Source: a bacterium
GTDB lineage: Bacteria; Omnitrophota; Gorgyraeia; Zapsychrales; Fredricksoniimonadaceae
Direction: 5' to 3'
NCBI GenBank assembly: GCA_021783915.1
Contig: JAJXTI010000001.1
Location: forward strand, 1,540-65,539
Length of the DNA: 64,000 nt
The notes under the pieces are model-generated. The model had not been told where the DNA came from, made no database searches, and was given only the letters and a program-made list of their open reading frames with translations. This document shows, in pieces, positions 1-47,401 of the stretch. Each line of letters starts with the position of its first letter. The stretch's first letter is position 1. The position numbers were made by a program, and so were the translations under genes.

Positions 1-1612
1 CAAATTTTTCAAAATAAGTCCATCGGTCATAGCGGGGACGGTTGCCTTTATAGAAAAACCACTTGATGTTATCGACAAAGTCTTTCCAGTCTTTGCCGCG
101 TGGCACCAAAGAATTAGGGCCATAAAGGAGCCCTTTGTCTTTTTGGACAATGAGCTTGTAAGACATCTGTATCAAGTGAAACAAAAAATACCCTATGGTA
201 ATAAGGCCACACACCCTGTGAAAATACCTGGTCACTTCCATGCCGCCTAAAAATGAAGCCAAGGCCTTTGCCCAAGGGGCGTAATAGTATTTCAAAGGGA
301 GACCTGTCATGACAAGGCCGAGGAAAGAGGTGACAACAACCCCGTGAAGCCTTCGCTGCAAATCGGAAAAACGACGGACGTACTGCTGCGAGTCTCTGTC
401 CACGACGAATTCCCGGCGGATGATCGCCACCACGCTCCTTTGAAACCATAAAAGCGTGTGCACTCCCCAGAAACCAAAGACACAGATCATTAACCATTTC
501 ATGAACTGGAATGTGTAATAGATAAGGGGCGAGCTGTCCTTGTCTTGCGGGTTGGCGTGGGGATCGTACCCAATGAAACGGTTGTTGATGTTGTTATGGC
601 ATTTGGCGCAAGTGGCCCTTAAATTGGCCTTGTTAACGCTCGACCGGGGATCTTTCGCAGGTAAAATTTCATGGGTGCTGTGGCAATCCACGCACTTGGC
701 AGATCTCATAAAACCTAAAGAAGTCGACTGCCCATGGAATGTGTCTGAATACGTGGCCACCTTGCCATGGTGGCAATGCCCACATTCGCCGGCAATGGCC
801 ATCCGCGACTGTTTGGTCTGCGTTTCATCCACGCCGTGTTCGCTATGGCAAGAAGTACAGACCGGAGCGTCTGGGCGGCCAGCCAGCCATAATTTTCCAT
901 GAATGCTTGTTATATATTGTTTGTAAATACCTTCATGACACTTGGCACATGTCTTGGGAACATTTTTCTTGGAAACCTCCGAATCCGGGTCAGAAGCCGG
1001 CTGTATTTCATGGGCCCCGTGGCAGTCCGCGCAAGTGGCCGACACGTTAAGCCCTTTAAAATGAACCCCCCTGCCATGGACACTGGTCAAATATTTTCTC
1101 ACAAAATCCGCTTTAGGAAGGTCCGGGTATTGCTTGAGGATTTCTTTATTAGTATGGCACTTCAGGCACCCTCCATCACTTCTTAGGTGGTTGGCCAAAG
1201 ACCGGGGGTCTTTAATGCTGAAAATATCATGCTTGCCGTGGCAATCCGGGCAACCAGGTAAATTAGGTTTGCCTTGCTTGGCAAGTTTGGAATGGATGCT
1301 TAAGGCGAATTTTTTTCCAACGTCTTTATGGCAGGAAGAACAATCGACTTTAGCTAGTTTCTCGGCGTGGGAGGTGTCTTTGACATCGCTATGGCAATCC
1401 ACACAAGCCAGCTTATTGTGCACGGATTCATTGAATATTTTTTGATCTATGACAGGGTCATTGTCCGCGTGGCAATCAAGGCACGCCTGGTTAGTCAATT
1501 TCTCCTGTGGTTTCTCTTGCGCTTTCTCTTGGGCGTAAATAGAGACCGCAGGGAAGGACAAAACAAAGGCCCAGAAAACCACCACAACATGTTTTTTATA
1601 TTTAATATTCAT
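1..1612 (-). CDS. multiheme cytochrome c (about 11 CxxCH) fused to a C-terminal di-heme cytochrome b membrane domain (CbcL-like, HydC/FdnI family); partial, 3' end runs off the window
   Basis: Hand translation of the minus strand from ATG at 1612 gives MNIKYKKHVVVVFWAFVLSFPAVSIYAQE, a signal peptide. Eleven in-frame CxxCH motifs were checked (His codons at 1469, 1391, 1328, 1238, 1154, 1019, 935, 845, 770/767, 680, 596). Downstream is a hydrophobic domain with conserved His (WGVH, RRLH, YFHRV, FHLIQ). No stop in this frame down to position 2. It is absent from the ORF track because it is incomplete. Confidence 0.8.
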   Translation of the reverse strand, partial: MNIKYKKHVVVVFWAFVLSFPAVSIYAQEKAQEKPQEKLTNQACLDCHADNDPVIDQKIFNESVHNKLACVDCHSDVKDTSHAEKLAKVDCSSCHKDVGKKFALSIHSKLAKQGKPNLPGCPDCHGKHDIFSIKDPRSLANHLRSDGGCLKCHTNKEILKQYPDLPKADFVRKYLTSVHGRGVHFKGLNVSATCADCHGAHEIQPASDPDSEVSKKNVPKTCAKCHEGIYKQYITSIHGKLWLAGRPDAPVCTSCHSEHGVDETQTKQSRMAIAGECGHCHHGKVATYSDTFHGQSTSLGFMRSAKCVDCHSTHEILPAKDPRSSVNKANLRATCAKCHNNINNRFIGYDPHANPQDKDSSPLIYYTFQFMKWLMICVFGFWGVHTLLWFQRSVVAIIRREFVVDRDSQQYVRRFSDLQRRLHGVVVTSFLGLVMTGLPLKYYYAPWAKALASFLGGMEVTRYFHRVCGLITIGYFLFHLIQMSYKLIVQKDKGLLYGPNSLVPRGKDWKDFVDNIKWFFYKGNRPRYDRWTYFEKF

Positions 1613-1676
1613 CCTAGACTATATTAAATATAAAATCCCCTTCTTGTCTGTGATAAGAATCACATCCGTTGGGACC

Positions 1677-4461: not shown

Positions 4462-5580
4462 ATGGCTTATTACAAAACGACCAATAATCATACAAAGAGA
4501 TTCACTAAAAAGCATTACGCCTTGGTAATAGAAGCTATCCGGCATGAATACCTCAACAACCCTTTGCCTCATACCGAGAGCTTTAGCACTCTCTTGGGCG
4601 TTGCTTCACAAACGATAGATGACTATAGACCCCAAGGCATTCCAATAAATCTAAATATTCCTGAACACTCCACGTTAAAAGAAATCCCCTTAGACCTCGT
4701 TGACCAAGTCATAAGTTGGTTAGAATTAGTTGATAAGGCTGTTTATGACCGCTCTGCCAGGGATTACGAACCGCACACACCGCTCGGAAGAATACCAATT
4801 AGCACCCGCAAGGAACCTAATCGTTTTTATCTTATCATTCCTGATTCTTTTAATAACTGGTATAACGGATATGCTGTTCGTCGTGATACCGCCCTTAATG
4901 ATTTAAGTGCTTTAAACCTTGAAAAGATATTCAACCTGGTCATGGACATCAACGATCAATTACAAATGAAACCAACTGAAGAGGTGGTCATAGGAATCGA
5001 CTCCCTCAATATAGACAAATTCCCTTTAATGAGCAGTCACATCATAGGGGATTCAAAGATTATGACCAGCTTCCGGCAAGATGCTTTGGACTATATGGAA
5101 CATGAATTTCTTATTTCATATTCTAAAATCGTCCCTGAGCTCGATAAAATTGCAATTAAACTAAATATTGAAGAATTTACCGCCTTCAAAAAGGAACTCG
5201 CATTAGTGTTTAAGGCAAGGGCTTCCCCATCCAAAGAAGATGCTGAATTAAAAAATGAGGTTTCTTATACCGTTACATTCAACGAAATGACTGGCGAAAT
5301 CCTAATCAATGACAAGGTATTTAAAAAAACTAACTTAGACAGCCTCGCAGACAGCGTTTTTACATTCCTGCATAAAAACCCAAACCGGAAAATAACAATC
5401 GGCGAGCTAAAGAAGGCGACCGGAAAACCCATTAAGGACTTACCAAAAGTAATCGAAAACGCTGGTTTTACAGGCAATCGGCTACGGGCATTTTTCAGAG
5501 TTGGCAAAGACGCTATCTATTTTAGGCCACAAGTTACCAAAGCCGATTTAGAAAAATTAAACATTTCATCCCTTGATTAG
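4462..5580 (+). CDS. hypothetical protein (island cargo)
   Basis: 372-aa ORF after an AT-rich promoter-like stretch. No recognisable motifs. Confidence 0.5.
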   Translation: MAYYKTTNNHTKRFTKKHYALVIEAIRHEYLNNPLPHTESFSTLLGVASQTIDDYRPQGIPINLNIPEHSTLKEIPLDLVDQVISWLELVDKAVYDRSARDYEPHTPLGRIPISTRKEPNRFYLIIPDSFNNWYNGYAVRRDTALNDLSALNLEKIFNLVMDINDQLQMKPTEEVVIGIDSLNIDKFPLMSSHIIGDSKIMTSFRQDALDYMEHEFLISYSKIVPELDKIAIKLNIEEFTAFKKELALVFKARASPSKEDAELKNEVSYTVTFNEMTGEILINDKVFKKTNLDSLADSVFTFLHKNPNRKITIGELKKATGKPIKDLPKVIENAGFTGNRLRAFFRVGKDAIYFRPQVTKADLEKLNISSLD

Positions 5581-5661
5581 TCTTTTTCTTCCCTTAAACA
5601 GCCCTTAAAATTCCCTAAGTAGCCCTATCTCTCCCCAATATCCGTTCCACTATCAAACGCC

Positions 5662-5853
5662 ATGCTACCCTATTTTTGTATGGCGAAATATCCTAAAGAA
5701 TACCTTGAAAAAACAATCCGCCTCTGGCAACCGTACAGCCCAGAGCCATTGACCCTTGAAGACGCCCAGGAAATAGCGGACAACGTCATCGGCCTTTATT
5801 CTTATTTAATCGAACTCAAACAAAAACATGACCAAAAAGAACCGAACCTATAA
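5662..5853 (+). CDS. hypothetical small protein
   Basis: 63-aa ORF between island genes. No motifs. Confidence 0.25.
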   Translation: MLPYFCMAKYPKEYLEKTIRLWQPYSPEPLTLEDAQEIADNVIGLYSYLIELKQKHDQKEPNL

Positions 5854-6355
5854 CACAAAATATATTAAGGCACGGGACACCTACACGGTAAAGGAACTCG
5901 CTGAAGCAATGCCTGTTCATCCAAGAACGGTTCAAGCCTGGAGAAAGCAAGGTCTGTCGCCAGTGGCCGAGGACATGGGCTATCTTCTATTTTTAGGATT
6001 GGAGATTATTCGATTTTTAAAAGTTAAGCGTCAAAAACATAAGCATCCTCTTACCCCAGGGGAATTTTATTGTGTTACCTGCCGACAGCCGAGACACGGG
6101 CAGGCAGACAGCGTCTCCATTGTCCTTACAGGGAAGCCTCTTGGAAAATCTGCTAAACAAGCCTTCATTCGAGGCATTTGTGAAACTTGTGGCCGCCCGC
6201 TCCTGCTGTTTTCCTCTGACCTAAAAATAAGAAAAATGATAGATGGCGGATTGCTGTCCAAAGAACATCAAGCGGTATTATTGGGGGCTGATGATGGCTC
6301 CGTAAACACTGACATTAGGGGAGGTCAAAATAATGAAACTCAATTTAAAAAATGA
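5828..6355 (+). CDS. HTH (excisionase/MerR-like) DNA-binding protein with CxxC...CxxC zinc ribbon
   Basis: YTVKELAEAMPVHPRTVQAWRKQGL is a helix-turn-helix of the excisionase HTH_17 type. It has CVTC...CETCG and sits immediately upstream of the tyrosine integrase. Confidence 0.5.
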   Translation: MTKKNRTYNTKYIKARDTYTVKELAEAMPVHPRTVQAWRKQGLSPVAEDMGYLLFLGLEIIRFLKVKRQKHKHPLTPGEFYCVTCRQPRHGQADSVSIVLTGKPLGKSAKQAFIRGICETCGRPLLLFSSDLKIRKMIDGGLLSKEHQAVLLGADDGSVNTDIRGGQNNETQFKK

Positions 6356-7391
6356 ACTCATCAAACGTAAGTTTTACCGTCGCTTGAAAGAAGCCGAAGG
6401 CATGGCCGAGGCCACTGTTGCAAATATTAAAAAAGCCGTTTTGCTCTATGAAGACTTCACCAAACAAGCTGACTTTATAAAATTCAACACCGATAAAGCC
6501 GTTGAATTTAAAAAATGGCTTCAAAAACGGGAATTTCGGGGTCAAACAATTTCTCTTACTACCTATCACAGCTATTTGCGGTATTTAATAAAATTCTTTA
6601 TATGGCTTTCGGGCGAGCCAGGTTATAAAAGCAGGATAACCCCAGACAAGATAGCCTATTTAAAATTGTCCCGCAAAGAGGAACGGATTGCCACTCAATA
6701 CATTCCCTGCAATTTCCCATCTCTGGAATATGTCCGAAAACTGGCTGACTCCATCCAAATCAACTGTGAAGTGGATATGCGGGATCGGGCTTTGATTGCC
6801 TTCGCCCTTTTAAGCGGGGCAAGAGACAAGGCGTTAGCCACTATCTCCCTGGGGTGTTTTGACGAAGACAATTTAATCATCAACCAAAATCCCCGTGCGG
6901 GCGTTGAAACGAAATTCGCCAAATTCATTGTTACTACCCTGCTCTGCTTTGATGAAAAACTGCTGGGCTTTGTTATCGAATGGGTCAAGTATCTAAAAAC
7001 TAAAGGCTTTGGCTTCCAAGACCCGCTTTTCCCCCGCTCCAAAGCAGACCAGGGAGAAAACAATTTGTCCTTTGAAAGTGCTAAGGACGTTGAGCCTGCG
7101 TTCTGGAAAACCACTGGACGGATAAGGGCGATTTTCAAAAAACGGGCGGAAGAGGCCAAAATGCGCTACTTCCCTCCGCACACCTTTAGACACGCCGCTA
7201 TCCATTTAGGACTTAAATCCTGCGTCAATGGGGAACAAATAAAGGCCATCAGTCAAAATTTCGGACACGAAAATGTAGCCACAACACTATCTTCATACGC
7301 AAATTATGATTCCACGACACTTAACGGCATCATAAGCCGTATTGACTTCTTGAAAAATCCGCCTGGAGAAAACAAACAAAATAACATTTGA
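6333..7391 (+). CDS. tyrosine site-specific recombinase/integrase
   Basis: C-terminal catalytic signature: ALLSGAR ... HTFRHAA ... LSSYANY (R...HxxR...Y). Confidence 0.75.
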   Translation: MKLNLKNELIKRKFYRRLKEAEGMAEATVANIKKAVLLYEDFTKQADFIKFNTDKAVEFKKWLQKREFRGQTISLTTYHSYLRYLIKFFIWLSGEPGYKSRITPDKIAYLKLSRKEERIATQYIPCNFPSLEYVRKLADSIQINCEVDMRDRALIAFALLSGARDKALATISLGCFDEDNLIINQNPRAGVETKFAKFIVTTLLCFDEKLLGFVIEWVKYLKTKGFGFQDPLFPRSKADQGENNLSFESAKDVEPAFWKTTGRIRAIFKKRAEEAKMRYFPPHTFRHAAIHLGLKSCVNGEQIKAISQNFGHENVATTLSSYANYDSTTLNGIISRIDFLKNPPGENKQNNI

Positions 7392-7413
7392 CAACAGTAT
7401 AAAACGCTATATT

Positions 7414-7638
7414 ATGCAAAGAAAGGAACAAATCATGCCAGACCTCATCCGTCGACTCGATACCTACCGTCTGGAAAATAGAATTTCCCAGGAAGAACTT
7501 GCCCAACGGCTGAAAGTCGCTTTTTCGACAGTCAACCGCTGGCTCAACGGAAAATCGAAGCCAAACAAAATCCAAAGTTACCACATTGAAAAACTTGTAA
7601 AAACCGCCGCCAGGAGATCAAACAATGGCAACGCTTGA
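7414..7638 (+). CDS. XRE-family HTH regulator, candidate R-M controller (C-protein-like)
   Basis: 74 aa; ISQEELAQRLKVAFSTVNRWLNG is an XRE HTH. It overlaps the start of the downstream mod gene by 14 nt. Confidence 0.55.
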   Translation: MQRKEQIMPDLIRRLDTYRLENRISQEELAQRLKVAFSTVNRWLNGKSKPNKIQSYHIEKLVKTAARRSNNGNA

Positions 7639-9241
7639 TTTTAAGGGTAAGTCTATCATCCAAAACTATCACCTGACGGTTAAGTATCACGAACTTTTGC
7701 CTCAAAAATCCAAAAGTATGACTGATAAGGTAAGCCTTAATGATAATCTCATCATCCACGGCGATAACTTAAAAGCCCTGAAAGCCCTTTTGCCCACGTA
7801 TGCGGGAAAGGTCAAATGTATTTATATTGATCCTCCCTATAACACGGGAAACGAAAACTGGATTTATAACGATAACGTCAATTCCCCCATGATGCAAGAA
7901 TGGCTCGGCAAGACCGTTGACAAAGAAGACCTCACTCGTCATGACAAGTGGCTCTGCCTGATGACCCCAAGATTAAAATTATTAAAAGACCTGTTAAAAG
8001 AAGATGGCATAATATTTATCTCAATCGACGATAATGAAATACATCGACTACGATTACTCATGGACGAACTATTTGGGGAGGGAAATTTTATTGCTCAATT
8101 AGGCTGGCAAAAAGTATACAGCCCCAAAAACCAATCAACCTACTTCTCCAATGATTATGAGTTTGTTTTATGCTACGCAAAAGATTTATCCAAAATAGAA
8201 ATAAACCTATTGCCAAGAACTACCGAGATGGATTCAAGATATAAGAATCCTGACAATGATCCTCGGGGAGATTGGAAATCTGGCGACCTGATTGCCAGTG
8301 AGGAACGCAAAAATGGTCACTACATTGTTAAAAGTCCTAAAACTGGAAAAGAATTTGACGCGCCTCCAGGAAAACATTGGTCATGCTCAAAAGAAAATAT
8401 GGAAAATTTCTTAGCTGATAACCGTATCTGGTTTGGTAAAGATGGTACCGCCTTCCCAAGCATGAAACAATTTTTAAGTGAAGTAAAACAAGGTCGAAAA
8501 GCATCAAGCCTACTAATGTATAAAGATTATGGACATACTGACGAAGCTAAGAAAGAAATAAAAAGCATCTTTTATGATTCTGAAAAAATCCCGTTCGATA
8601 CGCCAAAGCCTTTAAAGTTAATCAAAAATCTTATTACCCTTGGTTCAAACAAGGATAGCATTATTCTGGATTCATTCGCAGGAAGCGGGACAACGGGTCA
8701 CGCTGTTTTAGATTTAAACCAAGAAGATGGCGGGAAACGAAAATTTATTTTGATCGAATGCGAAAATTATGCTGAAAAAATTACATCTGAAAGAATTAAG
8801 AGAATTATTGAAGGTTTGCCTAAATCTACCGATATATCTTTAAACAAAAAATTAAACGGGTCATTCAGTTATTTTGAATTAGGCAAGCCTATTGAAATGG
8901 AAAATATTTTATCGGGTAAGAATCTGCCTACCTACAAAGAATTAGCCAGGTATATCTTCTACACAGCAACGGGCGAAGAATTTGAAGAAAAAAAGATCAA
9001 CGAAAAGCGTCAATTTATTGGCGAGTCCAAGAATTATGAAATATTTTTGCTCTACAATCCAGACATCACCTCTTTAAAAAAGACAGCCCTGACCCTTGAA
9101 TTGGCAAACAAGCTGGGAGAATTTAAAGGCAAACGCCGTCTTGTTTTTGCGCCGACAAAATATCTGGATAATGAACAGCTAAACCAACTCAAAATTGATT
9201 TTGCCCAACTACCATTTGAAATATACAAATTCGCCGAATAA
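7625..9241 (+). CDS. mod: Type III restriction-modification DNA methyltransferase (Mod, beta-class N6A/N4C MTase)
   Basis: Motif IV DPPY (IYIDPPYNTG) lies N-terminal to motif I FAGSGTTGHAV, which is the beta-class order. It is followed, with overlap, by a Res helicase-nuclease gene. Confidence 0.85.
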   Translation: MATLDFKGKSIIQNYHLTVKYHELLPQKSKSMTDKVSLNDNLIIHGDNLKALKALLPTYAGKVKCIYIDPPYNTGNENWIYNDNVNSPMMQEWLGKTVDKEDLTRHDKWLCLMTPRLKLLKDLLKEDGIIFISIDDNEIHRLRLLMDELFGEGNFIAQLGWQKVYSPKNQSTYFSNDYEFVLCYAKDLSKIEINLLPRTTEMDSRYKNPDNDPRGDWKSGDLIASEERKNGHYIVKSPKTGKEFDAPPGKHWSCSKENMENFLADNRIWFGKDGTAFPSMKQFLSEVKQGRKASSLLMYKDYGHTDEAKKEIKSIFYDSEKIPFDTPKPLKLIKNLITLGSNKDSIILDSFAGSGTTGHAVLDLNQEDGGKRKFILIECENYAEKITSERIKRIIEGLPKSTDISLNKKLNGSFSYFELGKPIEMENILSGKNLPTYKELARYIFYTATGEEFEEKKINEKRQFIGESKNYEIFLLYNPDITSLKKTALTLELANKLGEFKGKRRLVFAPTKYLDNEQLNQLKIDFAQLPFEIYKFAE

Positions 9242-11766
9242 TGGAACTTAAAGAATACCAACAGCGGACATTAAAAGAAATACGGGGCTACCTTGAAAGC
9301 CTTTATAAGTGGTCTGTTAAAAACCAACAGGTTATAAAGGCCGCGGGCTCGGACGCCACCCTTGATTTTCCTTTAAAAGCCTGGGCTGAAACGGTCAAGA
9401 CAAGTTACCGTTCAAGACAAAACGGCCTTGGGCATTACCTCCCTAACTTTTGTCTCAAAATACCTACTGGCGGCGGGAAGACTCTCCTTGCTGTAAAGAC
9501 CATTGATATTATCAATACTGTTTATCGCAAAAAACAAACTGGCCTGGTTCTTTGGGTAGTGCCAAGCAACCAAATCTATAATCAAACCCTAAAAAGTTTA
9601 CGTAACAGGGAACACCCCTACCGCCAGCATTTAGACATTGCCAGCGGTGGACGCACTTCAATCATTGAAAAAATGGATCGTTTTACCCCGCTGGATATTA
9701 AAGAAAATCTGGTTATTTTGCTTTTAATGCTTCCCTCTGCATCCAGGCAAAACAAAGAGACCTTAAAAGTATTTAAGGACAACGGCGGCTTCCAAAATTT
9801 CTTCCCCAGTGAAGATGATGTTGAAGGTAATAAAAAATTGTTGGAAGCCTTCCCGAATCTTGACACCTTTGGCAAAGACAACAGCTTCTTCGGAAGACAG
9901 GTAAAAACCTCTTTGGGCAACACTCTACGGATATTGTCCCCCATCATTATTCTTGATGAAGGGCATAAAGCCTATAGTGATACCGCACAAAAAACCCTGC
10001 GAGGCTTCAACCCCTCCATCATTATTGAGCTGTCTGCCACTCCTAACAAAGAGAGCAATATTCTCGTTGATATTAAAGGCGTCGAATTAGCCCGTGAAGA
10101 AATGATTAAACTTGACCTTCATGTCATCAATAAAGCCAGCTTGGATTGGAAAGATACCATGCTGGCAAGCATTGAGAAACGAAATTTACTTGAAGAAAAG
10201 ACCAAAGACTATCTTGGTTTTACTGGCGAATACATACGGCCTATCTGCTTGATACAGGTTGAACGCACGGGGAAAGACCAAAGAAGCGGGCGATTCATCC
10301 ATGCCGAGGACGTGTTTGATTATCTCGAAAAAGTTTGTGGTATTCCAAAGGAACAAATCGCAATCAAAACAAGCGAAAAAGACGACATTGAGGGGATTAA
10401 CCTTCTATCGCCTTCCTGCCCTATTCGATATATCATCACCAAACAAGCCTTGCAAGAAGGCTGGGACTGTTCTTTTGCCTATGTTTTAACGATACTGACA
10501 AATCCCTCCTCAAAAAATAATTTGACCCAGCTTGTAGGCCGCATTTTAAGACAGCCCTTTGCAAGAAAGACAAAAATTCAAGACCTCGATGAAAGCTATG
10601 TTGTCTGCTTTCAACAAAAAAGCACCCTTGTTTTAAAAAGCATCAAGGAAGGCTTTGAAGATGAAGGCTTGGGCGATTTAACAGGAATGATTATAAGCGA
10701 CTCCTCTGAATCTGGAACTCCACTTGAAGGGGATCGGATTGTTAATATCCGAGATGATTTTAAGAAGCTGGCAGGACAAATATTCTTGCCCGTATTTGTT
10801 TTGAAAGACTTTAAGACATGGCGAAAAGTAAGCTATGAATCCGATATTGTGAGTTTAATTGATTGGGACAAGGCGGACTTCTCCCCTCTTTATAAACTTC
10901 CCTTGTCCTATATTGAAGATCGGGACATCGAAATTGCCGTTGGATTAAGCGACGATGACGATGAGGTCATCCAAAAGCACGGCACTCGCAAACTCAAAGA
11001 AGGCGGGCTGACCCTTGACCTTGTCTTTATTACCCGTCATTTAACTGACATCATCCCTAATCCGTGGGTATCATTTGAAATAGTCCAAAAAATATTTAAA
11101 GAAATAATCAAAAGAAATGACGCTAAAAAGGTCATCAACAACCTTGTCTTTCTTATCGAAGAACTCCGCAAACACGCTGAATCGGAAAAAGACCGTCTCT
11201 CCCAGGAAATATTCATCAATTTAATCGCCAAGAAAGAAATGCGGTTCTTGATTTTAAGAGAATCTGGTGATTACCGTTTGCCCAGCAAAATCAAGGTCAA
11301 GCGTTCCAGCAAAACATTGACGCAAAAAGACGGCCAGCCCCTTCAATACAGCCTCTTTGATTTTGTCCCAGAGGAAAACTTTAATGACGCTGAAAAAGAT
11401 GTGGCCTGGTATCTCGAAGACCAAGAACGGCTCTTGTGGTGGTATCGAAACATCTCCAGGCAGGATTATTCAATACAAGGATGGAAACGCCATAAAGTCT
11501 ACCCTGACTTTATCTTCTCTGACGTTAGAAATAGGGAAAAAGTCGAGTACGACAAAGTTTTTGTTGTTGAAACAAAAGGCATTCATCTTAAAAACAACGA
11601 TGACAGCAACTATAAAAAAGACCTTTTCGCATGGTGTAACAAACTTGCCGAAGAAAAAAGTTGGACGGAACTTGGGCTTTCTTTTCCCGAGAAGAAAATT
11701 ATCTTTGAAGTTATTTCCGAAGACGAGTGGCAAAAAAAGATCAACCAAATATTCTTAGCCAAATGA
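9241..11766 (+). CDS. res: Type III restriction enzyme Res subunit (SF2 helicase plus PD-(D/E)xK nuclease)
   Basis: Walker A KIPTGGGKT and DEGH box (IILDEGHKA). C-terminal nuclease-like YPDF...VVETKG. Its ATG overlaps the mod stop. Confidence 0.85.
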   Translation: MELKEYQQRTLKEIRGYLESLYKWSVKNQQVIKAAGSDATLDFPLKAWAETVKTSYRSRQNGLGHYLPNFCLKIPTGGGKTLLAVKTIDIINTVYRKKQTGLVLWVVPSNQIYNQTLKSLRNREHPYRQHLDIASGGRTSIIEKMDRFTPLDIKENLVILLLMLPSASRQNKETLKVFKDNGGFQNFFPSEDDVEGNKKLLEAFPNLDTFGKDNSFFGRQVKTSLGNTLRILSPIIILDEGHKAYSDTAQKTLRGFNPSIIIELSATPNKESNILVDIKGVELAREEMIKLDLHVINKASLDWKDTMLASIEKRNLLEEKTKDYLGFTGEYIRPICLIQVERTGKDQRSGRFIHAEDVFDYLEKVCGIPKEQIAIKTSEKDDIEGINLLSPSCPIRYIITKQALQEGWDCSFAYVLTILTNPSSKNNLTQLVGRILRQPFARKTKIQDLDESYVVCFQQKSTLVLKSIKEGFEDEGLGDLTGMIISDSSESGTPLEGDRIVNIRDDFKKLAGQIFLPVFVLKDFKTWRKVSYESDIVSLIDWDKADFSPLYKLPLSYIEDRDIEIAVGLSDDDDEVIQKHGTRKLKEGGLTLDLVFITRHLTDIIPNPWVSFEIVQKIFKEIIKRNDAKKVINNLVFLIEELRKHAESEKDRLSQEIFINLIAKKEMRFLILRESGDYRLPSKIKVKRSSKTLTQKDGQPLQYSLFDFVPEENFNDAEKDVAWYLEDQERLLWWYRNISRQDYSIQGWKRHKVYPDFIFSDVRNREKVEYDKVFVVETKGIHLKNNDDSNYKKDLFAWCNKLAEEKSWTELGLSFPEKKIIFEVISEDEWQKKINQIFLAK

Positions 11767-13325
11767 CACCTTCTGCCCTTCTATACGTGCGAGTATCCAG
11801 CAAAGACCAGGAAAAAGAAGGCTGGTCTTTGGATGCCCAGGAAAAACTGGGCTATGAATACGCCAAGCGCAAAGGCTTTAATATTGTCAAAATGTGGAAG
11901 GTGTCGGAATCTGCCTGGCGCAAGGAACGAGTTGCCTTCAATCAAATGGTGGAATATGCCAAGAACCATGACGAGATTAAGCATATTATCTTTGACGTAT
12001 TAGACCGCATGACCCGCAACGACTTTGATAAACTCAAAATCGTCACCCTCGTCAAAGAATACGGAAAGAATATCCACTTTTCCCGAAGCAACAAGATTTT
12101 CAACCGTGAATCAAGCACGGATGACGAATTTATGTTTGATATTGAGGTTGCCGTTGCCAAAAAGCAATCCAATGACATTTCCCGCAAAACTCAAATGGGC
12201 ATGGTTGAGAAAGCCGAGCAGGGCTTCTTCCCTGCCACCGCCCCGCTTGGCTATAAGAATAACCGAGAGAAAAAACTACTCGAACTAAACCCTGACCAGG
12301 CGGCCAGCATTAAAAAAGCCTTTGAATTGATGTCTACGGGAAAATATTCCCTCGATATGATTAGAGAAATTCCTGAAGTAAAGGGACTTAAAACTAACCG
12401 AAGCAACAAAGTTAATAAAAGTACCCTTTCCTATGTGCTAAACAACCCTTTCTATTATGGCCTCTTCCAATGGAAAGGAAAAATTTACCAAGGCAATCAT
12501 GAACCTTTAATCTCAAAAGAGCTTTTTGACCGCACCCAACAGGTCTTAAACGGAAAATTTCATACCCGCAAGAGTAAAAAGGGGTTTGCCTTTAATAATC
12601 TTCTGGTGTGCGGGGAGTGTAGCTGTAAGGTTCTGGGAGAGGAAAAGCGCAAGCCCAATAATCTCCACTATGTTTATTACCATTGTACTTTTTCAAAGGG
12701 CAGACACAACGGCAAAGGCTATATTCCTGAAACCCGTCTTGCCCAACTTTTTGAAAAACCCGTTATGGATGTTGTCTTGCCAGCAGAGATGTCTGACTGG
12801 ATTAAAGAAGGGCTTGGACATGACCGTAAAAACCTATCAGAAACGCACGAGAACCGCCTTAAATCGCTTCAAAGCCAACACAGTAAGGTCAATGACCGAT
12901 TAAACCGTCTTTACGACGATAGATTTGACGGTAAGGTGGATGATGAGGTCTTTAAAACAAAGGAAACTGAATACAAGGCGTTGTTGCTTGAGATAAAGGG
13001 CGAGATTGAAAAGGCCAAGAAAGTAAATCCAAACTTCTATGAAGACGGGCTTGCAACCCTCGAACTCCCGAACCTGTATATTTCCCAATATGATAAAGCA
13101 AGCTATCCAAACAAGGCCGTCATACTCAAAAAATTAGCCTCGAACTACACCCTAAATGACGTAACTATAACTGCCGCATATAGACAACCCTTCATCTTCT
13201 TAGCGAAAATGAAGGGTTGTCCAAACTGGTTGCCCCGTCTGGACTCGAACCAGAATACTGAGATCCAGAGTCTCATGTCCTACCAATTAGACGACAGGGC
13301 AAGTAAAACAAAAAACCGCCATTAA
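11763..13325 (+). CDS. large serine recombinase (resolvase/invertase catalytic domain plus zinc ribbon and coiled coil)
   Basis: ALLYVRVSSKDQ is the catalytic Ser motif. A recombinase domain, CGECSC...HC zinc ribbon and coiled-coil tail follow. Start ATG 11763 overlaps the res stop (ATGA). The last ~33 codons read through tRNA-Gln on the opposite strand. Confidence 0.8.
   Translation: MTPSALLYVRVSSKDQEKEGWSLDAQEKLGYEYAKRKGFNIVKMWKVSESAWRKERVAFNQMVEYAKNHDEIKHIIFDVLDRMTRNDFDKLKIVTLVKEYGKNIHFSRSNKIFNRESSTDDEFMFDIEVAVAKKQSNDISRKTQMGMVEKAEQGFFPATAPLGYKNNREKKLLELNPDQAASIKKAFELMSTGKYSLDMIREIPEVKGLKTNRSNKVNKSTLSYVLNNPFYYGLFQWKGKIYQGNHEPLISKELFDRTQQVLNGKFHTRKSKKGFAFNNLLVCGECSCKVLGEEKRKPNNLHYVYYHCTFSKGRHNGKGYIPETRLAQLFEKPVMDVVLPAEMSDWIKEGLGHDRKNLSETHENRLKSLQSQHSKVNDRLNRLYDDRFDGKVDDEVFKTKETEYKALLLEIKGEIEKAKKVNPNFYEDGLATLELPNLYISQYDKASYPNKAVILKKLASNYTLNDVTITAAYRQPFIFLAKMKGCPNWLPRLDSNQNTEIQSLMSYQLDDRASKTKNRH
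13227..13301 (-). tRNA. tRNA-Gln (anticodon CTG)
   Basis: Hand-folded cloverleaf. Acceptor TGCCCTG/CGGGGCA with U1:A72. Anticodon stem TGAGA/TCTCA with loop CTCTGGA. T-arm TCTGG-TTCGAGT-CCAGA. CCA encoded. Confidence 0.8.
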
Positions 13326-18715: not shown

Positions 18716-20038
18716 TTATTTTGTCTTTTTTCTCAGTTTTTCCAGGCGTTCTTTAATTCTAGCTTCGTAACCTTGCCCGGTTGGTTCATAATAAACCGCC
18801 TGCTCAGACATGTACTCTTGCGCAACATAATGTTGGGGATAATCATGGGCGTACTTATACCCCTCTCCACGCCCCAGTTGAGGGGCCCCTTTATAATGGG
18901 TATCTTTTAAATGCTTGGGAACAGCTTGTGTGCGTTTGTCCTTAACGTCGGCCAAGGCCTTATCCATGCCGAGGTAGACCGCATTGGATTTTGGCGCACA
19001 GGCCACATAGACCGCTGCTTGGGCCAATAGGATACGTGCCTCAGGCAAACCGACAAACTCGGTCGCCTGCATGGCAGAAGTGGCCACGACCAGAGCCTGA
19101 GGGTCCGCATTGCCTACGTCTTCGCTGGCGCAGATAACAATCCGGCGGGCTATAAAACGTGGGTCTTCTCCTGCATAAATCATTTTAGCCATCCAGTAAA
19201 GGGCAGCGTCCGGGTCCGAACCGCGCATGGATTTAATGAAAGCGGAAGCTGTATCGTAATGCTGGTCACCATCGGCGTCATACTGTACTTGTTTTTTCTG
19301 GATACTCTCTTCGATGGCTCTCGTATCTAAAATAATTTCTCCCTGGGCATTTTTAGGTGTAGTCAGGCAGGCAACTTCCAGTGCGTTGAGGGCCTTGCGC
19401 GCGTCTCCATCGCAAATTCTGGCCAAGAACTCCAACGCTGAAGGGGCCGGCTGAATGTTTAAAAACCCTATCCCCCTCTCCCTGTCTGCCAGCGCACGTT
19501 TAAGCAACACCATGACATCTTCTTTTGTCAAGGGTTGAAGTTCGAAAACCAATGACCTTGATAATAAAGGAGCGACTAGCACGAAAAAAGGGTTAAAAAC
19601 GGTGGCCCCGATGAGAACAATATTTCCTTCCTCGATATCGGGCATAAGTACGTCTTGCTGCGCTTTGTTAAAACGATGGATTTCATCTATAAAAAGAATC
19701 GTTTTCCGTCCCCCCATGCTTCGACGCTGTTGTGCGCCGGCGATGACTTTTCGCATTTCTTCCACGTTAGAAGAAACCGCATTGATCCTTTCAAAATGGG
19801 ACTGGGTTTTTTGGGCAATGCATAAAGCCAGCGTGGTTTTACCTGCCCCTGGTGGGCCATATAAAATTAAAGAAGAAATACGGTCGGCTTCGATAGCGCG
19901 GGTCAAAAGTTTTCCCTCCCCAAGGATGTGGCCCTGGCCAACATACTCCATCAAACTTTTAGGCCTCATCCGTGCGCTCAAAGGGGCATCTTGGGCCCCT
20001 GTTTCAATAGAAAATAGATCCTGGTTGGGGTTATTCAT
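18716..20038 (-). CDS. rarA: replication-associated recombination protein A (AAA+ ATPase)
   Basis: LILYGPPGAGKTTLA Walker A. MgsA/RarA-like C-terminal region. Confidence 0.85.
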   Translation of the reverse strand: MNNPNQDLFSIETGAQDAPLSARMRPKSLMEYVGQGHILGEGKLLTRAIEADRISSLILYGPPGAGKTTLALCIAQKTQSHFERINAVSSNVEEMRKVIAGAQQRRSMGGRKTILFIDEIHRFNKAQQDVLMPDIEEGNIVLIGATVFNPFFVLVAPLLSRSLVFELQPLTKEDVMVLLKRALADRERGIGFLNIQPAPSALEFLARICDGDARKALNALEVACLTTPKNAQGEIILDTRAIEESIQKKQVQYDADGDQHYDTASAFIKSMRGSDPDAALYWMAKMIYAGEDPRFIARRIVICASEDVGNADPQALVVATSAMQATEFVGLPEARILLAQAAVYVACAPKSNAVYLGMDKALADVKDKRTQAVPKHLKDTHYKGAPQLGRGEGYKYAHDYPQHYVAQEYMSEQAVYYEPTGQGYEARIKERLEKLRKKTK

Positions 20039-20105
20039 AAGCGTTTTGAATTATAACACTAAAAATATGGTTTCTTGTTTGTTTTTCCCCCTAATCCGTT
20101 TTATC

Positions 20106-21509
20106 ATGATTTATACTTATAAAGACACCCGTCCCGGTCAACATTTGGTTATGGTTCCTATTTCTATCAAATCAATTGAAGAAACTTCCGTCATACGAAA
20201 ATTTACCCTGCTTTTCCTTATAGCTTCTATCCTGCCTCTTCTTCTCCTTTGTTTGTTTTATCTTGAGTCTCTCCACAACGACAAACTCCCCCTGTTTATC
20301 AGCAATCTTAAACCTGCCCTTCTGTTGACCGTTATCGGTACGGGATTTGGGTATTGGGCCATGCGCAAAATCGTCTCTGAGTTTGTCCGGGCCACGAAAT
20401 CCAACCGCCAGGCCTTTTCAAAAATAATAGGGCAAGATCTTTTGCCCACTTCCGATGAAGAAACGAATGAACTCTTTTTGCTTATACGCACCTTTAACGA
20501 AATAAAGTCCTCGCTGGAAAAAGACATTCAACGTTTGGAATTGACCAAGCAAACTTTGAATTCTGTACTATTAAAAGTCAGCAAAGGGATCGCGTCAGCA
20601 AAAACTCTTGACCATTTTCTACAATTGATTATTGAAACCATTACCGAGGCCTTGATGGGGCGCGCTGGGAGTATATTTTTAATTGATAAACAAGAATTTT
20701 TCGTCAAATCCTCCTGGGGAGAAAACAGTGAATCTTTAACGGGAGTAAGGTTCAAGACAGATTCTCCTTTGTTTCAAGATGTCCTGCGCTCTAAAGGCGG
20801 ACTGATTATCTCTACCCCTGAATCTATTCTCCCTAGCGCCCCCTCTCAGGTCTCGGGTTTTCTTGAATTCCCATTGATTTGCTGTCCGCTGACTGTCAGC
20901 GACCGTCCAGTTGGCCTTATTTTGGTCTGCGGCAGAAGGATCCCGGAAGATTTTCAGGAATATGAACTGTCCCTGCTTAACAATGTGGCGGCCCAGGCGA
21001 CCCTGGCCATCAATAATGAAGAATTGAAACATCTCTCCCGTATTGACCCTTTGACCAATATATACAATTATCGCCATTTGGTGGAAACCCTGGATTATGA
21101 AATACACCGCTGCAAAAGATACCCTGAAAAGCTGTACCTCCTGCTGGTTGATATTGATGACTTTAAAGCCTATAACGATGCCTTGGGGCATCTTGCGGGG
21201 GATGCGTTATTACAAGAGATCCCTCGTGCGATGAGTCATCAACTGCGCATAAGCGATACCATTTGTCGTTACGAAGGCGATGAATTTTCGATCATCCTGC
21301 CACAAACAGACCTCCAGGGGGCCCAAACCGTCGCGAATAAAATAAAAGCATCTCTCGAGAACTCTGTCTTCGAAAAGAAAATAACAGCCTGCATCGGCAT
21401 CGCCGAGTGGTCCGAGGAGATTGACCGTAGAGAGTTAATGTTTAAGGCCGAAGGGGCCCTCTCCCAAGCCAAAAAAGAGGGTAAAAATAAGATTGTCGTG
21501 AGTCAATAA
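20106..21509 (+). CDS. GAF-domain diguanylate cyclase with degenerate GGDEF motif (RYEGDEF) and an intact RxxD I-site
   Basis: The ORF-track start at 19602 overlaps rarA on the opposite strand, so the start is moved to Met 20106 before an N-terminal TM segment. GGDEF-domain residues DIDDFKAYND, then RISD-TIC-RYEGDEF. Confidence 0.75.
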   Translation: MIYTYKDTRPGQHLVMVPISIKSIEETSVIRKFTLLFLIASILPLLLLCLFYLESLHNDKLPLFISNLKPALLLTVIGTGFGYWAMRKIVSEFVRATKSNRQAFSKIIGQDLLPTSDEETNELFLLIRTFNEIKSSLEKDIQRLELTKQTLNSVLLKVSKGIASAKTLDHFLQLIIETITEALMGRAGSIFLIDKQEFFVKSSWGENSESLTGVRFKTDSPLFQDVLRSKGGLIISTPESILPSAPSQVSGFLEFPLICCPLTVSDRPVGLILVCGRRIPEDFQEYELSLLNNVAAQATLAINNEELKHLSRIDPLTNIYNYRHLVETLDYEIHRCKRYPEKLYLLLVDIDDFKAYNDALGHLAGDALLQEIPRAMSHQLRISDTICRYEGDEFSIILPQTDLQGAQTVANKIKASLENSVFEKKITACIGIAEWSEEIDRRELMFKAEGALSQAKKEGKNKIVVSQ

Positions 21510-21710
21510 AAAATCCCGCAGATGCCGTTGGGCTGGTGTAATGAGAACCATCGTTCTCAAGTGGGCGCCGGTATGTGGACGACTAGGCGTGCCAGCAAGA
21601 ACCAGCTCCCTCGTGTATTGTTTGTGGTTCAATACATCCGAACCCTGACGCACACCGCAGGATAATTGAATTATATCACGGAAGAACTTTAGTGCAAATC
21701 GAATAAAAAA

Positions 21711-21767: not shown

Positions 21768-24173
21768 TTATTTATCCGCGGTAATACGCATATCATAAAA
21801 TGACCGGCACACAAACACTAGGGCAATGGCAAAAAAGATAATGGCCAATACTGTGTCCAGCCCGCGGCTTAAGCCAATGGCAATTTCAATGGCTAAGAGT
21901 CCAAACAGAGTAGTAAATTTAATAGTTGGATTCAACGCAACCGAAGAGGTATCTTTAAAAGGATCCCCTACGGTGTCGCCAACGACTGTGGCGGCATGAA
22001 CCTCTGTTCCTTTTTCCTTATAAGTGACCTCGACGAGCTTTTTGGCATTGTCCCAAGCCCCTCCTGCATTGGCCATAAAGATAGCTTGGTACAGGCCGAA
22101 GATGGCAATAGAAATAAGATAGCCGATAAAAAAGTACGGCTCTAAACAAGCAAAGGCCAGCGTTGAAAAAAGGATAGTAAGGAACAGATTGACCATCCCT
22201 TTCTGGGCGAAAATGGTGCATATCTCCACGACCCTGGTGCTGTCCACTTCCGAGGCCCTGTCTGATCCTTCGAGTTTAATATGTGCTTTGATATATTCAA
22301 CCGCATGGTACGCGCCTGTCGTTACCGCTTGGATGGAGGCCCCGGTAAACCAATAAATTACAGCGCCCCCTGTCAAAAGTCCCAATAAAAACGGCGGATA
22401 CAATAACGAAAGGTTTTCTATGTTCATGGTCAGTCCGTGGGTGAGAATCATAATGATGGAAAAAATCATCGTTGTCGCTCCCACAACCGCCGTACCGATG
22501 AGCACAGGCTTGGAAGTGGCCTTAAAGGTGTTTCCAGCACCGTCGTTGGCTTCCAAATGGTGCTTGGCATTTTCAAAATTCGGCTCAAATCCAAAATCTT
22601 TTTTGATCTCTTCTTTGATATTGGGAATCGTCTCAATCAAAGAGAGTTCATAAATAGACTGTGCGTTATCGGAAACCGGGCCGTAAGAATCCACCGCGAT
22701 GGTGACCGGCCCCATCCCTAAGAAACCGAAAGCAACCAACCCAAAAGCAAACACGGCGGGTGCGAGCATGAGTTGGCCCATCCCAAACAGGCTTACAAAA
22801 TACCCCATGCCCATTAAACCCACGATGATCAAACCCATCCAATAGGCGCTGAAATTACCCGCCACAAGTCCAGACAAAATATTAAGGGAAGTTCCCCCCT
22901 TTTTGGAACATTGATAAATATTTTTAACATAGGCAGACTCCGTGGAGGTGAACATCTTGACTGCCTCGGGAATCAGAGCGCCAGCGATATTGCCGCAGGT
23001 GATGATGGTTGCTAATTTCCACCAAAACGTGCCATCACCCAAATGAGGGATCAAAATATAAGAAGCCAGATAGGTCAAAAAGATGGACATCAACGAGGTG
23101 ATCCACACCAAGGAAGTCAAGGGGTCCTCGAAATTCATGGTTGTGACATGGGCATAACGTTTCTTGGCAATCCAATTGTTGATTTCATAGGAGACCCCGC
23201 TGGCAATGACCATCATTAATCGCATGGAAAAAATCCACACCAGAAGCTGGGCCTGGTTAAAAGGGTCTTTAACGGCCAAAAGAATAAAGGTAATCAGGGC
23301 GACCCCTGTGACCCCGTAAGTCTCAAAACCATCCGCCGTAGGCCCCACAGAGTCCCCAGCGTTATCCCCGACACAATCAGCAATGACCCCGGGATTGCGG
23401 GCATCGTCTTCCTTAATATTAAGAACGATTTTCATTAAATCAGAACCAATATCGGCAATCTTTGTAAAGATACCTCCTGCAATCCTTAAGACCGAAGCTC
23501 CCAAGGATTCGCCGATGGCAAAACCTATAAAGCAAGGGCCTGCATAATCAGGGCTGATAAAAAGAAGGATGCTCAACATAACAAAAAGTTCAATACTAAT
23601 CAGCAGCATCCCAATGCTCATCCCCGCCTGCAACGGGATGCTGTAAACTGGAAACGGGTTGCCTTTAAGGCTGGCAAACGCCGATCTGGAATTGGCCAAG
23701 GTATTAATGCGCATGCCAAACCATGCTACCCCATAACTTCCGGCAATGCCGATCAGGCTACAGATGAGAATGAGAATAACCCTGCTGGCATCAAAATGCC
23801 GTAACCAGCCAAAATAAACCACCATCACTATACCAATGAGGATCTCGAGAATAAGCAGAAACTTGCCTTGCTGGATTAAATAGGCCTTGCAAGTTGTATA
23901 GATAAGCTCAGAGACCTCTCTCATGCTCTTGTGTACAGGCATTTTTTTGATCTGTCCATACTGGAACACCCCGAAAAACGCACCGAAAGCACAGACAATA
24001 AGCCCCAGCAAAAGGGCCAAGTGGCCGTTTAAGTTAAAAATCAACGGTACCATGGACAAATCCGGAACCTTTAGGTCCGCTTCCCCGGCAAAAGCCATGG
24101 ACGTATTGAGAAAAACAACGGCCAAAACCATAAACCAAGCATGTTTTTTTAAAAAACTGTCCTTATTGCCCAT
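21768..24173 (-). CDS. hppA: membrane-bound proton- or sodium-translocating pyrophosphatase
   Basis: 801-aa polytopic membrane protein with H+-PPase signature regions (GGAWDNAKK, DxxGDxxGD-type motifs). Confidence 0.85.
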   Translation of the reverse strand: MGNKDSFLKKHAWFMVLAVVFLNTSMAFAGEADLKVPDLSMVPLIFNLNGHLALLLGLIVCAFGAFFGVFQYGQIKKMPVHKSMREVSELIYTTCKAYLIQQGKFLLILEILIGIVMVVYFGWLRHFDASRVILILICSLIGIAGSYGVAWFGMRINTLANSRSAFASLKGNPFPVYSIPLQAGMSIGMLLISIELFVMLSILLFISPDYAGPCFIGFAIGESLGASVLRIAGGIFTKIADIGSDLMKIVLNIKEDDARNPGVIADCVGDNAGDSVGPTADGFETYGVTGVALITFILLAVKDPFNQAQLLVWIFSMRLMMVIASGVSYEINNWIAKKRYAHVTTMNFEDPLTSLVWITSLMSIFLTYLASYILIPHLGDGTFWWKLATIITCGNIAGALIPEAVKMFTSTESAYVKNIYQCSKKGGTSLNILSGLVAGNFSAYWMGLIIVGLMGMGYFVSLFGMGQLMLAPAVFAFGLVAFGFLGMGPVTIAVDSYGPVSDNAQSIYELSLIETIPNIKEEIKKDFGFEPNFENAKHHLEANDGAGNTFKATSKPVLIGTAVVGATTMIFSIIMILTHGLTMNIENLSLLYPPFLLGLLTGGAVIYWFTGASIQAVTTGAYHAVEYIKAHIKLEGSDRASEVDSTRVVEICTIFAQKGMVNLFLTILFSTLAFACLEPYFFIGYLISIAIFGLYQAIFMANAGGAWDNAKKLVEVTYKEKGTEVHAATVVGDTVGDPFKDTSSVALNPTIKFTTLFGLLAIEIAIGLSRGLDTVLAIIFFAIALVFVCRSFYDMRITADK

Positions 24174-43151: not shown

Positions 43152-44087
43152 CTACCGGCCCGACGAATTGTCTTTGCGAATGACTGCTAGTACCCTGTCT
43201 AAGTCATCCAACGAGTAATATTCCACAATGAGCTTGCCCTTGCCTTTTTTGTCCTCGACGGTGACCTTGGTCCCAAGGATTTTCCGCAGTTCATCCTCAA
43301 GATTGGCAATATCAGGGTCCTTGGCCCTTTGTGCCTTGGTCTTCTTGGGCTTTTTGCCTGAAGTCTGTTTGGTCAACCCTTCGACGGAACGCACGGACAA
43401 ATTTTGATTGATGATGTCTTGCACCATCTTGCGTTTTTGATCCACATCACTAACGGCCAATAGCGCACGCGCATGCCCCATCGTGAGCCTTCCATCGATA
43501 AGATAATCCTGTATGTCCGACGGCAGAGTCAACAAACGCAACATATTAGAGATCGTCGAACGGTCTTTGCCCACGGCCTGGGCCACCTGATCCTGGGTCA
43601 GCTTAAAACCCTGTATCAAGGTATCAAACGCGCTGGCCTCCTCAATGGGGTTAAGATCCTGGCGCTGGATATTTTCCACCAAGGCCAACAGCAAACAATC
43701 GGCATCAGAGACATTCTTGATCACAGCAGGAACGCTCTCAAGTCCCAAGGCGCGAGCGGCGCTAAGGCGACGCTGGCCGGCAACCACCTGGAACCGACCT
43801 TCCTTTTGACGCACAAGAATAGGCTGCAAAATTCCCTTGTCTTTAATGGAAATTTTAAGTTCTTCAAGGGCGGCCGGATCATAATTGACCCTTGGTTGAC
43901 AAGGGTTATTGTCAATCAAATCGGTCCTTATCGTAGCGACTTCTTGTTGAGATATATTTTGGGGATCCATTCCCTGCTCTTTCTGACGCGATTGGCTCAT
44001 CTGTTCCAAGGCGGTCTCCATCCTGGCCTTATCCGTTGCCGAGGAAATAAGCGCTGAGAGTCCTTTGCCTAAAGCTTTATTGTCCAT
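43152..44087 (-). CDS. parB: chromosome partitioning protein ParB
   Basis: GLGKGLSALI N-terminus and ParB box LVENIQR. Confidence 0.85.
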   Translation of the reverse strand: MDNKALGKGLSALISSATDKARMETALEQMSQSRQKEQGMDPQNISQQEVATIRTDLIDNNPCQPRVNYDPAALEELKISIKDKGILQPILVRQKEGRFQVVAGQRRLSAARALGLESVPAVIKNVSDADCLLLALVENIQRQDLNPIEEASAFDTLIQGFKLTQDQVAQAVGKDRSTISNMLRLLTLPSDIQDYLIDGRLTMGHARALLAVSDVDQKRKMVQDIINQNLSVRSVEGLTKQTSGKKPKKTKAQRAKDPDIANLEDELRKILGTKVTVEDKKGKGKLIVEYYSLDDLDRVLAVIRKDNSSGR

Positions 44088-44160
44088 GTCCTTCCCCTCC
44101 TTCTAAAGGTTCTCTTCTGACCTATGGTTCAGTTTTTATAAATACATAACTTATTTATTA

Positions 44161-46804: not shown

Positions 46805-46806
46805 AA

Positions 46807-47016
46807 TTATTTTACCGGATCGTATCCGCCTTTAGATAGGGGAGAGCAGCGTAAGATGCGCCAGGCGCCCATAAACAGGCCTTTAAAAGCCCCATGTCTG
46901 CGTATGGCCTCGACTGTGTACTGCGAGCACGTCGGATAAAACCGACAAGCATTAATGCCAAAAGGCCGACTTAACCTTTGATAAGCTTTTACGGCAAACA
47001 ATAACAGTCTGTCCAT
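46807..47016 (-). CDS. yidD: membrane protein insertion efficiency factor YidD
   Basis: AVKAYQRLSRPFGINACRFYPTCSQY. Confidence 0.8.
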   Translation of the reverse strand: MDRLLLFAVKAYQRLSRPFGINACRFYPTCSQYTVEAIRRHGAFKGLFMGAWRILRCSPLSKGGYDPVK

Positions 47017-47057
47017 GGGAAAGCAACCTTAGACGAGAGCCTCGTCCTTGACCTTAT

Positions 47058-47380: not shown

Positions 47381-47401
47381 TTATCCACAGCTGTGAATAA
47401 C
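47381..47401. promoter_or_regulatory. inverted pair of DnaA boxes upstream of dnaA (TTATCCACA-gct-TGTGAATAA)
   Basis: Perfect consensus TTATCCACA and its near-complement separated by 3 nt. Confidence 0.75.

Follow-up and report, generated by a model that had tools for sequence, protein, structure and literature searches.

A fused 11-haem c-type and dihaem b-type cytochrome of the CbcL/MtrH/MtoC family encoded in an Omnitrophota genome

CbcL of Geobacter sulfurreducens (GSU0274, WP_010940947.1; 619 amino acids, aa) combines, in this order, a Sec leader, a multihaem c-type domain and six transmembrane (TM) helices with an FdnI/HydC-type dihaem cytochrome b (PMC9129911, PMC6295460). Its periplasmic domain (residues 30-279) holds nine haems, the six TM helices are associated with two b haems and no accessory subunits are involved (PMC9129911; bioRxiv 10.1101/2022.08.31.506072). 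The purified c-type domain exchanges electrons with the periplasmic cytochrome PpcA (PMC9129911), and a quinone (Q) site on the cytoplasmic side has been argued for CbcL (bioRxiv 10.1101/2022.08.31.506072). Homologs of CbcL, MtrH and MtoC have been traced in 15 phyla, with three homologs in Candidatus Omnitrophica, and range over 3-23 CxxCH motifs, 416-1034 aa and 28.6-100% identity, six TM segments being the usual number (Zhong & Shi, Front Microbiol 2018, PMC6295460). A further gene of this kind is located at the start of a 64,000-nucleotide stretch (positions 1,540 to 65,539 of contig JAJXTI010000001.1, assembly GCA_021783915.1; hereafter the window) from an Omnitrophota bacterium. It lies on the minus strand, a detail missing from the first-pass annotation of this DNA, and, judging from sequence comparisons and a structural model, probably encodes a CbcL/MtrH/MtoC-family electron gate of the inner membrane, a reading to which we assign a probability of about 0.8.

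In the translation of window positions 1-1612 the gene runs from an ATG at 1610-1612 through 537 codons without a stop and is still open at the window start, so that it is truncated by the window edge and not by a stop codon. The full-length protein (P0001, 680 aa) is 100% identical to the part encoded in the window, which covers 537 of its 680 codons, and supplies the last 143 residues from beyond the window start. Its gene is present in two independent assemblies, the NCBI metagenome-assembled genome (MAG) GCA_027356455.1 (locus L001) and an ENA/Logan contig (L002), and in both the c and b parts form a single uninterrupted 680-aa open reading frame (ORF) free of frameshifts. The extension to the full gene that had been proposed in the first-pass annotation is hereby supplied and adds His578 and His593, while the frameshift between the c and b parts that it had considered as a threat to its fusion claim does not exist in either assembly. 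The GyrB protein encoded in the window is 84-88% identical to proteins named Candidatus Omnitrophica or Omnitrophota at NCBI, on which basis the window is assigned to Omnitrophota, and the nearest species-representative homolog of the cytochrome (60% identity) is also from this phylum. The gene, its parts and the gap upstream are laid out as follows:

2..1612, minus strand: codons 1-537 of the 680-codon CbcL/MtrH/MtoC-family multihaem c/dihaem b fusion gene (stop-free translation and the identical P0001)
1532..1612, minus strand: predicted Sec-type signal peptide, aa 1-27 (Lys-rich n-region, hydrophobic stretch 7-29, small residues ahead of Gln28)
548..1531, minus strand: periplasmic 11-haem c-type domain, aa 28-355 (CxxCH motif count and Pfam matches)
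1469-1483, minus strand: first CxxCH
596-610, minus strand: last CxxCH
419..529, minus strand: first TM helix, aa 362-398, with the invariant His385 (AlphaFold2 helix; hydropathy window 370-389)
2..373, minus strand: N-terminal part of the FdnI/HydC-type cytochrome b core, aa 414-537 (PF01292, FdnI profile alignment, Foldseek match to 1kqf_C)
344-346, minus strand: haem-b ligand His423
218-220, minus strand: haem-b ligand His465
L001 10688-11119, outside the window: residues 538-680, with TM helices 4-6, His578 and His593 (full-length gene in GCA_027356455.1)
1627..1656 (L001 9033-9062), minus strand: sigma-70-like promoter match TTATCA-18-TATATT in the 64-bp gap upstream (consensus match only)

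The N-terminus, MNIKYKKHVVVVFWAFVLSFPAVSIYA followed by QE, appears to have the n/h/c organisation of a Sec leader, and the N-terminal residues MNIKYKKH-VVVVFWAFVLSFPAVSIYA-QE resemble such a leader. Cleavage would probably take place after Ser24 or Ala27, and residues 1-36 have low predicted local distance difference test (pLDDT) values in the AlphaFold2 model. Exactly 11 CxxCH motifs follow in the same frame, in agreement with the eleven motifs behind a Sec signal peptide reported in the first-pass annotation, with their first Cys at residues 44, 70, 91, 121, 149, 194, 222, 252, 277, 307 and 335; given the Cys and His content of the protein itself, about 0.06 such motifs would be expected by chance. 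Three Pfam families, Cytochrome_C7, c3_2 and Paired_CXXCH, match the c domain above threshold. The periplasmic domain also contains 11 His residues outside the motifs that are candidate distal ligands, ten of which are kept in at least 40 of 42 aligned homologs, while conservation of the remaining one, His82, is confined to the short form with 11 haems. Since a candidate distal His is available for each haem and no Met is conserved in the c domain across the 42-homolog alignment, it is likely that all 11 c haems are bis-His ligated.

Past the last haem motif the same frame enters hydrophobic helices with His residues, and the first-pass view that it continues without a stop into a HydC/FdnI-type domain is upheld. 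The suggested search against PF01292 had a divided outcome, with the full 680-aa protein scoring 48.4 bits over residues 414-593 (threshold 30.1) and the window fragment alone falling below this threshold at 26.4 bits. Of the four haem-b ligand His, the fragment includes His423 and His465 only, and His578 and His593 come with the full-length protein. The first three TM helices and the start of the fourth are encoded inside the window, whose part of the b core comprises TM helices 2 and 3, a cytoplasmic loop and the start of an invariant RWTYxEKFDY motif. A confident AlphaFold2 model based on the 42 homologs (pLDDT 87.4, predicted template-modelling score 0.74) has six long TM helices, at residues 362-398, 417-441, 457-489, 533-557, 569-598 and 647-677, and hydropathy agrees with five of the six. 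The first of these precedes the FdnI-like core and is predicted to take the polypeptide from the periplasmic to the cytoplasmic side.

When the model was compared with the PDB using Foldseek, the sole significant match was E. coli FdnI, the gamma subunit of formate dehydrogenase-N (1kqf_C; E 1.9e-4, probability 1.00, template-modelling score 0.71 over FdnI), while the E. coli hydrogenase-1 cytochrome b chain (4gd3_A) ranked fourth with a non-significant E-value. A profile of the b domain likewise found only 1kqf_C in the PDB (E 0.0013), and a sequence search of the PDB with the protein gave only a weak multihaem match, 28pb_A. His18, His57, His155 and His169 of FdnI correspond in the profile alignment to His423, His465, His578 and His593, all invariant in the 42-sequence alignment, and the four conserved His on which the first-pass assignment of the b domain depended are thus all present. 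The menaquinone-site loop of FdnI (N110-Q113) aligns with T532-E535 in the invariant T532-Y533-x-E535-K536 of the RWTYxEKFDY motif, and on this alignment the Q site would be placed on the cytoplasmic face. FdnI (PDB 1KQF chain C) and P0001 have the four-helix dihaem b core in common at 16% identity. FdnI, however, is without a fused c-type domain and without the two extra TM helices of P0001, and its partners are the FdnGH catalytic subunits, none of which are encoded at the P0001 gene.

Relatives of CbcL were recovered via machine-read CbcL fragments from a supplementary figure of PMC9129911, in which the optical character recognition was unreliable and rows were duplicated. This query returned only short database fragments (P0121-P0133), which derive from b domains of the Desulfuromonadales type and among which one is from Desulfuromonas thiophila. 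Two such CbcL-type fragments match P0001 in the b domain, one at 44% identity over 211 aa (E 8e-62) and the other at 42%. A CbcL-type fragment searched against 1.84 billion cluster representatives matched 1,557 clusters at E ≤ 0.001 (228 at E ≤ 1e-30), and these include full-length nine-haem proteins of 615-654 aa, the size and haem count of CbcL. P0001 aligns end to end with the nine-haem CbcL-type proteins (34-38% identity over ~590-720 columns, E 1e-115 to 1e-148), with nine haem motifs in register and haems 7 (Cys222) and 9 (Cys277) as its two extras. It also shares 40% identity over 408 aa (E 5e-101) with a 413-aa Geobacter-type CbcL fragment, in a match which takes in the final two haems, the additional first TM helix together with its His, and the entire b domain. 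The motifs GPxSLxP, RWTYxEKFDxxAVFWG, HSDEALLA and HFF are common to the b domains of P0001 and the CbcL-type proteins, and neither CbcL nor P0001 has accessory iron-sulfur (FeS) or molybdenum (Mo) subunits.

P0001 nevertheless differs from CbcL in haem number (11 versus nine), length (680 versus 619 aa) and phylum, and is 34-44% identical to CbcL-type sequences, as against at least 57.6% within the Geobacter/Desulfuromonas clade. As CbcL in the strict sense is delimited by nine haems and at least 57.6% identity, P0001 is not a strict CbcL ortholog. CbcL in this strict sense is also defined as a menaquinol oxidase needed to reduce extracellular acceptors of low potential. The CbcL-like c+b fusion recognised in the first-pass annotation is borne out at the level of the broad family, by colinearity with the nine-haem CbcL-type proteins at 34-40% identity. 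MtoC and MtrH of Dechloromonas aromatica, Gallionella capsiferriformans and Rhodoferax ferrireducens, likened to P0001 by their published description, are members of the same family and are ~35% identical to CbcL (PMC6295460), a distance like that of P0001 from the CbcL-type proteins. The mtoC/mtrH genes are often clustered with mtrAB/mtoAB (PMC6295460), and the closest relatives of P0001 have MtrA-like and porin-like genes beside them. In Fe(II) oxidisers MtoC is considered to work inward, towards quinone reduction. The window is without mtoAB-like genes.

OGX07562.1 of Omnitrophica WOR_2 bacterium GWA2_47_8, from the same phylum as P0001, is likewise characterised by 11 CxxCH motifs and six TM segments. 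The likeness is one of motif positions, those of OGX07562.1 (10, 36, 57, 87, 115, 160, 188, 218, 243, 273 and 301) being in every case the P0001 position minus 34, and at 649 aa it is 31 aa shorter than P0001, probably as a result of a later start call. It is listed as a CbcL/MtrH/MtoC homolog in Table S2 of PMC6295460, and the 11-haem architecture is therefore already on record for Omnitrophota. More than 5,400 clusters (90% identity) match P0001 at E ≤ 1e-5 with the same fused layout, and the aligned set splits mainly into an 11-haem form of ~670 aa and a 19-haem form of ~925 aa, across many phyla. The long form (e.g. P0018) has the same b domain and final haem modules as P0001 at 38-41% identity, with eight more haems in the periplasmic domain. 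With an exported multihaem c domain, a six-TM C-terminal domain and PF01292 with its ligand His in one polypeptide, together with colinear similarity, P0001 belongs to the broad CbcL/MtrH/MtoC family as an ordinary representative, a new sequence of known architecture.

Among the top matches the 19-haem form is the commonest, in Acidobacteriota, Zixibacteria, Ignavibacteria, Verrucomicrobia, Hydrogenedentota and others, and one 15-haem intermediate (P0082) was observed. Two further proteins from the search of cluster representatives, P0255 and P0257, have CbcL-type b domains preceded by N-terminal non-haem repeats (LGE[IV]L...G.IS...L..AL..Q), with neither a multihaem domain nor the first TM helix, which suggests that the N-terminal module of this variant is cytoplasmic.

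Sequence and model together show a Sec leader for export of the N-terminal domain with its 11 c-type haems, a single TM helix returning the chain to the cytoplasm, and a four-helix FdnI-type core for two b haems followed by the sixth TM helix. The ligands of the b haem nearer the cytoplasm are His423 and His593, and those of the b haem nearer the periplasm His465 and His578. In the proposed mechanism, by analogy with FdnI and CbcL, (mena)quinol would be oxidised at a cytoplasmic-face site equivalent to that of FdnI, with the protons released to the cytoplasm. The electrons may then pass from the cytoplasmic-side to the periplasmic-side b haem, along the 11-haem wire and on to soluble periplasmic cytochromes or reductases, a path that has been argued for CbcL.

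Several observations weigh against the gene product acting as an outward-running electron gate of this kind. Neither a partner cytochrome, nor a porin, nor an ImcH-like gene is encoded in the 64-kb window, and sequence features separating quinol oxidases from quinone reductases have not been found in the family (PMC6295460). The Q site is placed by a weak profile alignment (E 0.0013), and the comparison with CbcL was made with database relatives and not with the GSU0274 sequence itself. Furthermore, two His residues invariant in 42 of 42 homologs have no counterpart among the haem ligands of FdnI and are unexplained by this template: His385 in the extra first TM helix (window 457-459), which is kept in the Geobacter-type CbcL fragment, and His598 outside the window, five residues past the cytoplasmic-side haem ligand. 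These two residues could constitute a family-specific quinol, proton or regulatory site.

A 64-bp gap separates the ATG of the cytochrome gene from an upstream GHL10 glycosidase-like gene on the same strand, which is followed by an Ada/AraC-type regulator gene. Beyond the window edge, a gap of ~300 bp is followed by a gene for a sensor-like membrane protein without a Pfam match. The promoter-like site in the 64-bp gap stems from a scan in which 15 sites were found versus 6.8 expected, so that a single site is weak evidence. The search for partner periplasmic cytochromes recommended in the first-pass annotation came up empty, with no second ORF of at least 80 aa carrying two or more CxxCH in the 64-kb window, and the gene has no adjacent extracellular electron transfer (EET) cytochromes or porin there, as would mark an EET gene module.

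A probable integrated mobile/defence island is located at window positions 4462-13325, starting ~3 kb from the cytochrome gene. It encodes a tyrosine integrase (6333-7391), an HTH protein (7414-7638), a type III restriction-modification pair (mod 7625-9241, res 9241-11766) and a serine recombinase (11727-13325), the ORF of which overlaps a tRNA gene on the opposite strand (13230-13301, minus strand). The G+C content of the island is lower (0.40-0.42) and its AT skew is positive. The lost synteny of the cytochrome gene may be explained by this mobile island nearby.

The gene has a different setting in its relatives. An ImcH-like gene occurs in ~43 of the 80 related loci, mostly on the same strand and directly adjacent in about half, and codes for a protein of ~500 aa with 5-6 CxxCH motifs and a NapC/NirT-type region, with three N-terminal TM helices in L083, the copy that was inspected. 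A shared cluster accompanies the three homologs closest to P0001, at 58-64% identity (L083 4880-12013, L085 191-12037 and L087 5145-11989), and in it a ~90-aa ORF, a heptahaem MtrA/DmsE-like gene, a gene for a ~700-aa protein and the ImcH-like gene precede the cbcL-like gene. The ~90-aa ORF has one CxxCH in L083, the sole copy checked. The protein of ~700 aa matches no Pfam family; it starts with a signal peptide, ends in an aromatic residue and resembles outer-membrane barrels in composition. The cluster is preceded by hemA, with hemerythrin, CRP or ResB/CcsA genes sometimes interposed, and, from its predicted products, it has the appearance of an Omnitrophota porin-cytochrome conduit. Adjacent EET cytochromes or porins are thus found in the relatives L003, L083, L085 and L087, and some gammaproteobacterial loci additionally hold MtrC/OmcA-like decahaem proteins. 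The ImcH-like, MtrA-like and porin-like neighbours in the closest relatives suggest an extracellular end point for the clade. They support an extracellular electron-transfer role for the clade but not for this genome, in which the gene is detached from the module. That the 11-haem gate has become separated from the ImcH-like/MtrA-like/porin cluster in this lineage to serve as a stand-alone link between quinone pool and periplasm, for example to exchange electrons with a host or partner cell, or in a periplasmic process to which the family has so far not been linked, appears quite unlikely.

The isolation of the gene also bears on whether its product functions as a general periplasmic quinol dehydrogenase like CymA or NrfH, feeding soluble reductases or detoxification enzymes without any EET. 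This would fit a gene which stands alone in 64 kb, with no porin, MtrA-like, ImcH-like or other multihaem ORF, among unrelated neighbours and with a possible promoter-like site of its own. We consider it a possible but tentative alternative, as relatives at 58-64% identity retain an EET-like cluster and the absence of partners applies to the 64-kb window, not to the whole MAG. A reversed, MtoC-like operation is doubtful. Electrons from the periplasm (Fe(II), a partner cell or a host) would here travel along the 11-haem wire to the b haems and reduce quinone with proton uptake from the cytoplasm, and the inward flow would, as in Fdn-N, generate proton-motive force. FdnI (1KQF), the fold match of the b domain, itself runs in the quinone-reducing direction, and beta- and gammaproteobacterial homologs occur among the related loci. 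The family furthermore includes MtoC of the Fe(II) oxidisers, with no sequence feature marking direction (PMC6295460). The closest relatives, by contrast, pair the gene with ImcH-like proteins, ImcH homologs having been found only in Fe(III) reducers (PMC6295460), and the window showed no markers of Fe(II) oxidation.

The match to PF01292, the FdnI fold and the JGI label of many homologs, 'cytochrome b subunit of formate dehydrogenase', could be taken to indicate a subunit of formate dehydrogenase or [NiFe] hydrogenase. This is very improbable, given that molybdopterin, FeS or NiFe subunit genes flank the gene neither here nor in relatives, that no catalytic subunit is encoded among the 32 window ORFs of at least 250 aa, all of which were scanned, and that the fused 11-haem domain stands in the place of the catalytic partner. 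The NCBIfam equivalogs score far below their cut-offs (FdnI 20.7 versus 115.9; HydC 16.3 versus 121.5), and with the catalytic partners absent this identity was rejected. NCBIfam has no CbcL-specific model, and all matches of the window fragment in it are far below cut-off. An ImcH/NapC-NirT-type identity was also rejected, as PF03264 reaches 16.4 bits versus 24.1 and the C-terminal, b-haem-binding membrane domain represents the wrong topology. Finally, a gene cut at the window edge ~3 kb from a mobile island might be suspected of being an assembly artefact or a decaying pseudogene. The chance of this is close to nil, with an identical 680-aa ORF in two independent assemblies, thousands of homologs of the same layout and intact haem sites (11 motifs, the ten conserved distal His plus His82 and the four b-haem His), and this explanation was discarded because the assemblies agree and all motifs are intact.

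The gene shows that in this Omnitrophota genome the membrane quinone pool is connected to the periplasm by a haem-based route, implying a capacity for respiratory, and possibly extracellular, electron transfer that is useful for the metabolic reconstruction of an uncultivated lineage. The first-pass annotation had considered such a capability worth following, and the respiratory capacity is indeed implied by the protein, but the novelty is small, an 11-haem Omnitrophica member having been published in 2018 (PMC6295460). Little is new beyond the sequence, since the family, its phylogenetic spread, the variable haem number and the 11-haem Omnitrophica layout were all part of that publication. 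The gene is better annotated as CbcL/MtrH/MtoC-type than as 'formate dehydrogenase cytochrome b subunit' or 'cytochrome c3 family protein'.

Elsewhere in the window, a chromosomal origin region is found at 45206-55266, with yidC (45206-46804, minus strand), dnaA (47424-48761, plus strand), dnaN (48926-50020, plus strand), gyrB and gyrA, next to which parA/parB are encoded at 43152-44940 (minus strand). Between ~46 and 48 kb the GC skew changes sign, the G+C content drops to 0.38 and the gene orientation flips, and on this basis oriC is probably located at ~46.8-47.4 kb. A giant ORF of 3,043 aa at 28770-37901 (minus strand) has no Pfam match at E ≤ 1e-4. A 6S RNA (Rfam RF00013, 60 bits; 21509-21666, minus strand) adjoins a membrane H+-pyrophosphatase gene (21768-24173, minus strand) and abuts the end of a GAF-GGDEF ORF (19602-21509, plus strand). 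At 59807-61651 (plus strand), a secretin domain and a C-terminal TonB_C domain are encoded in a single ORF.

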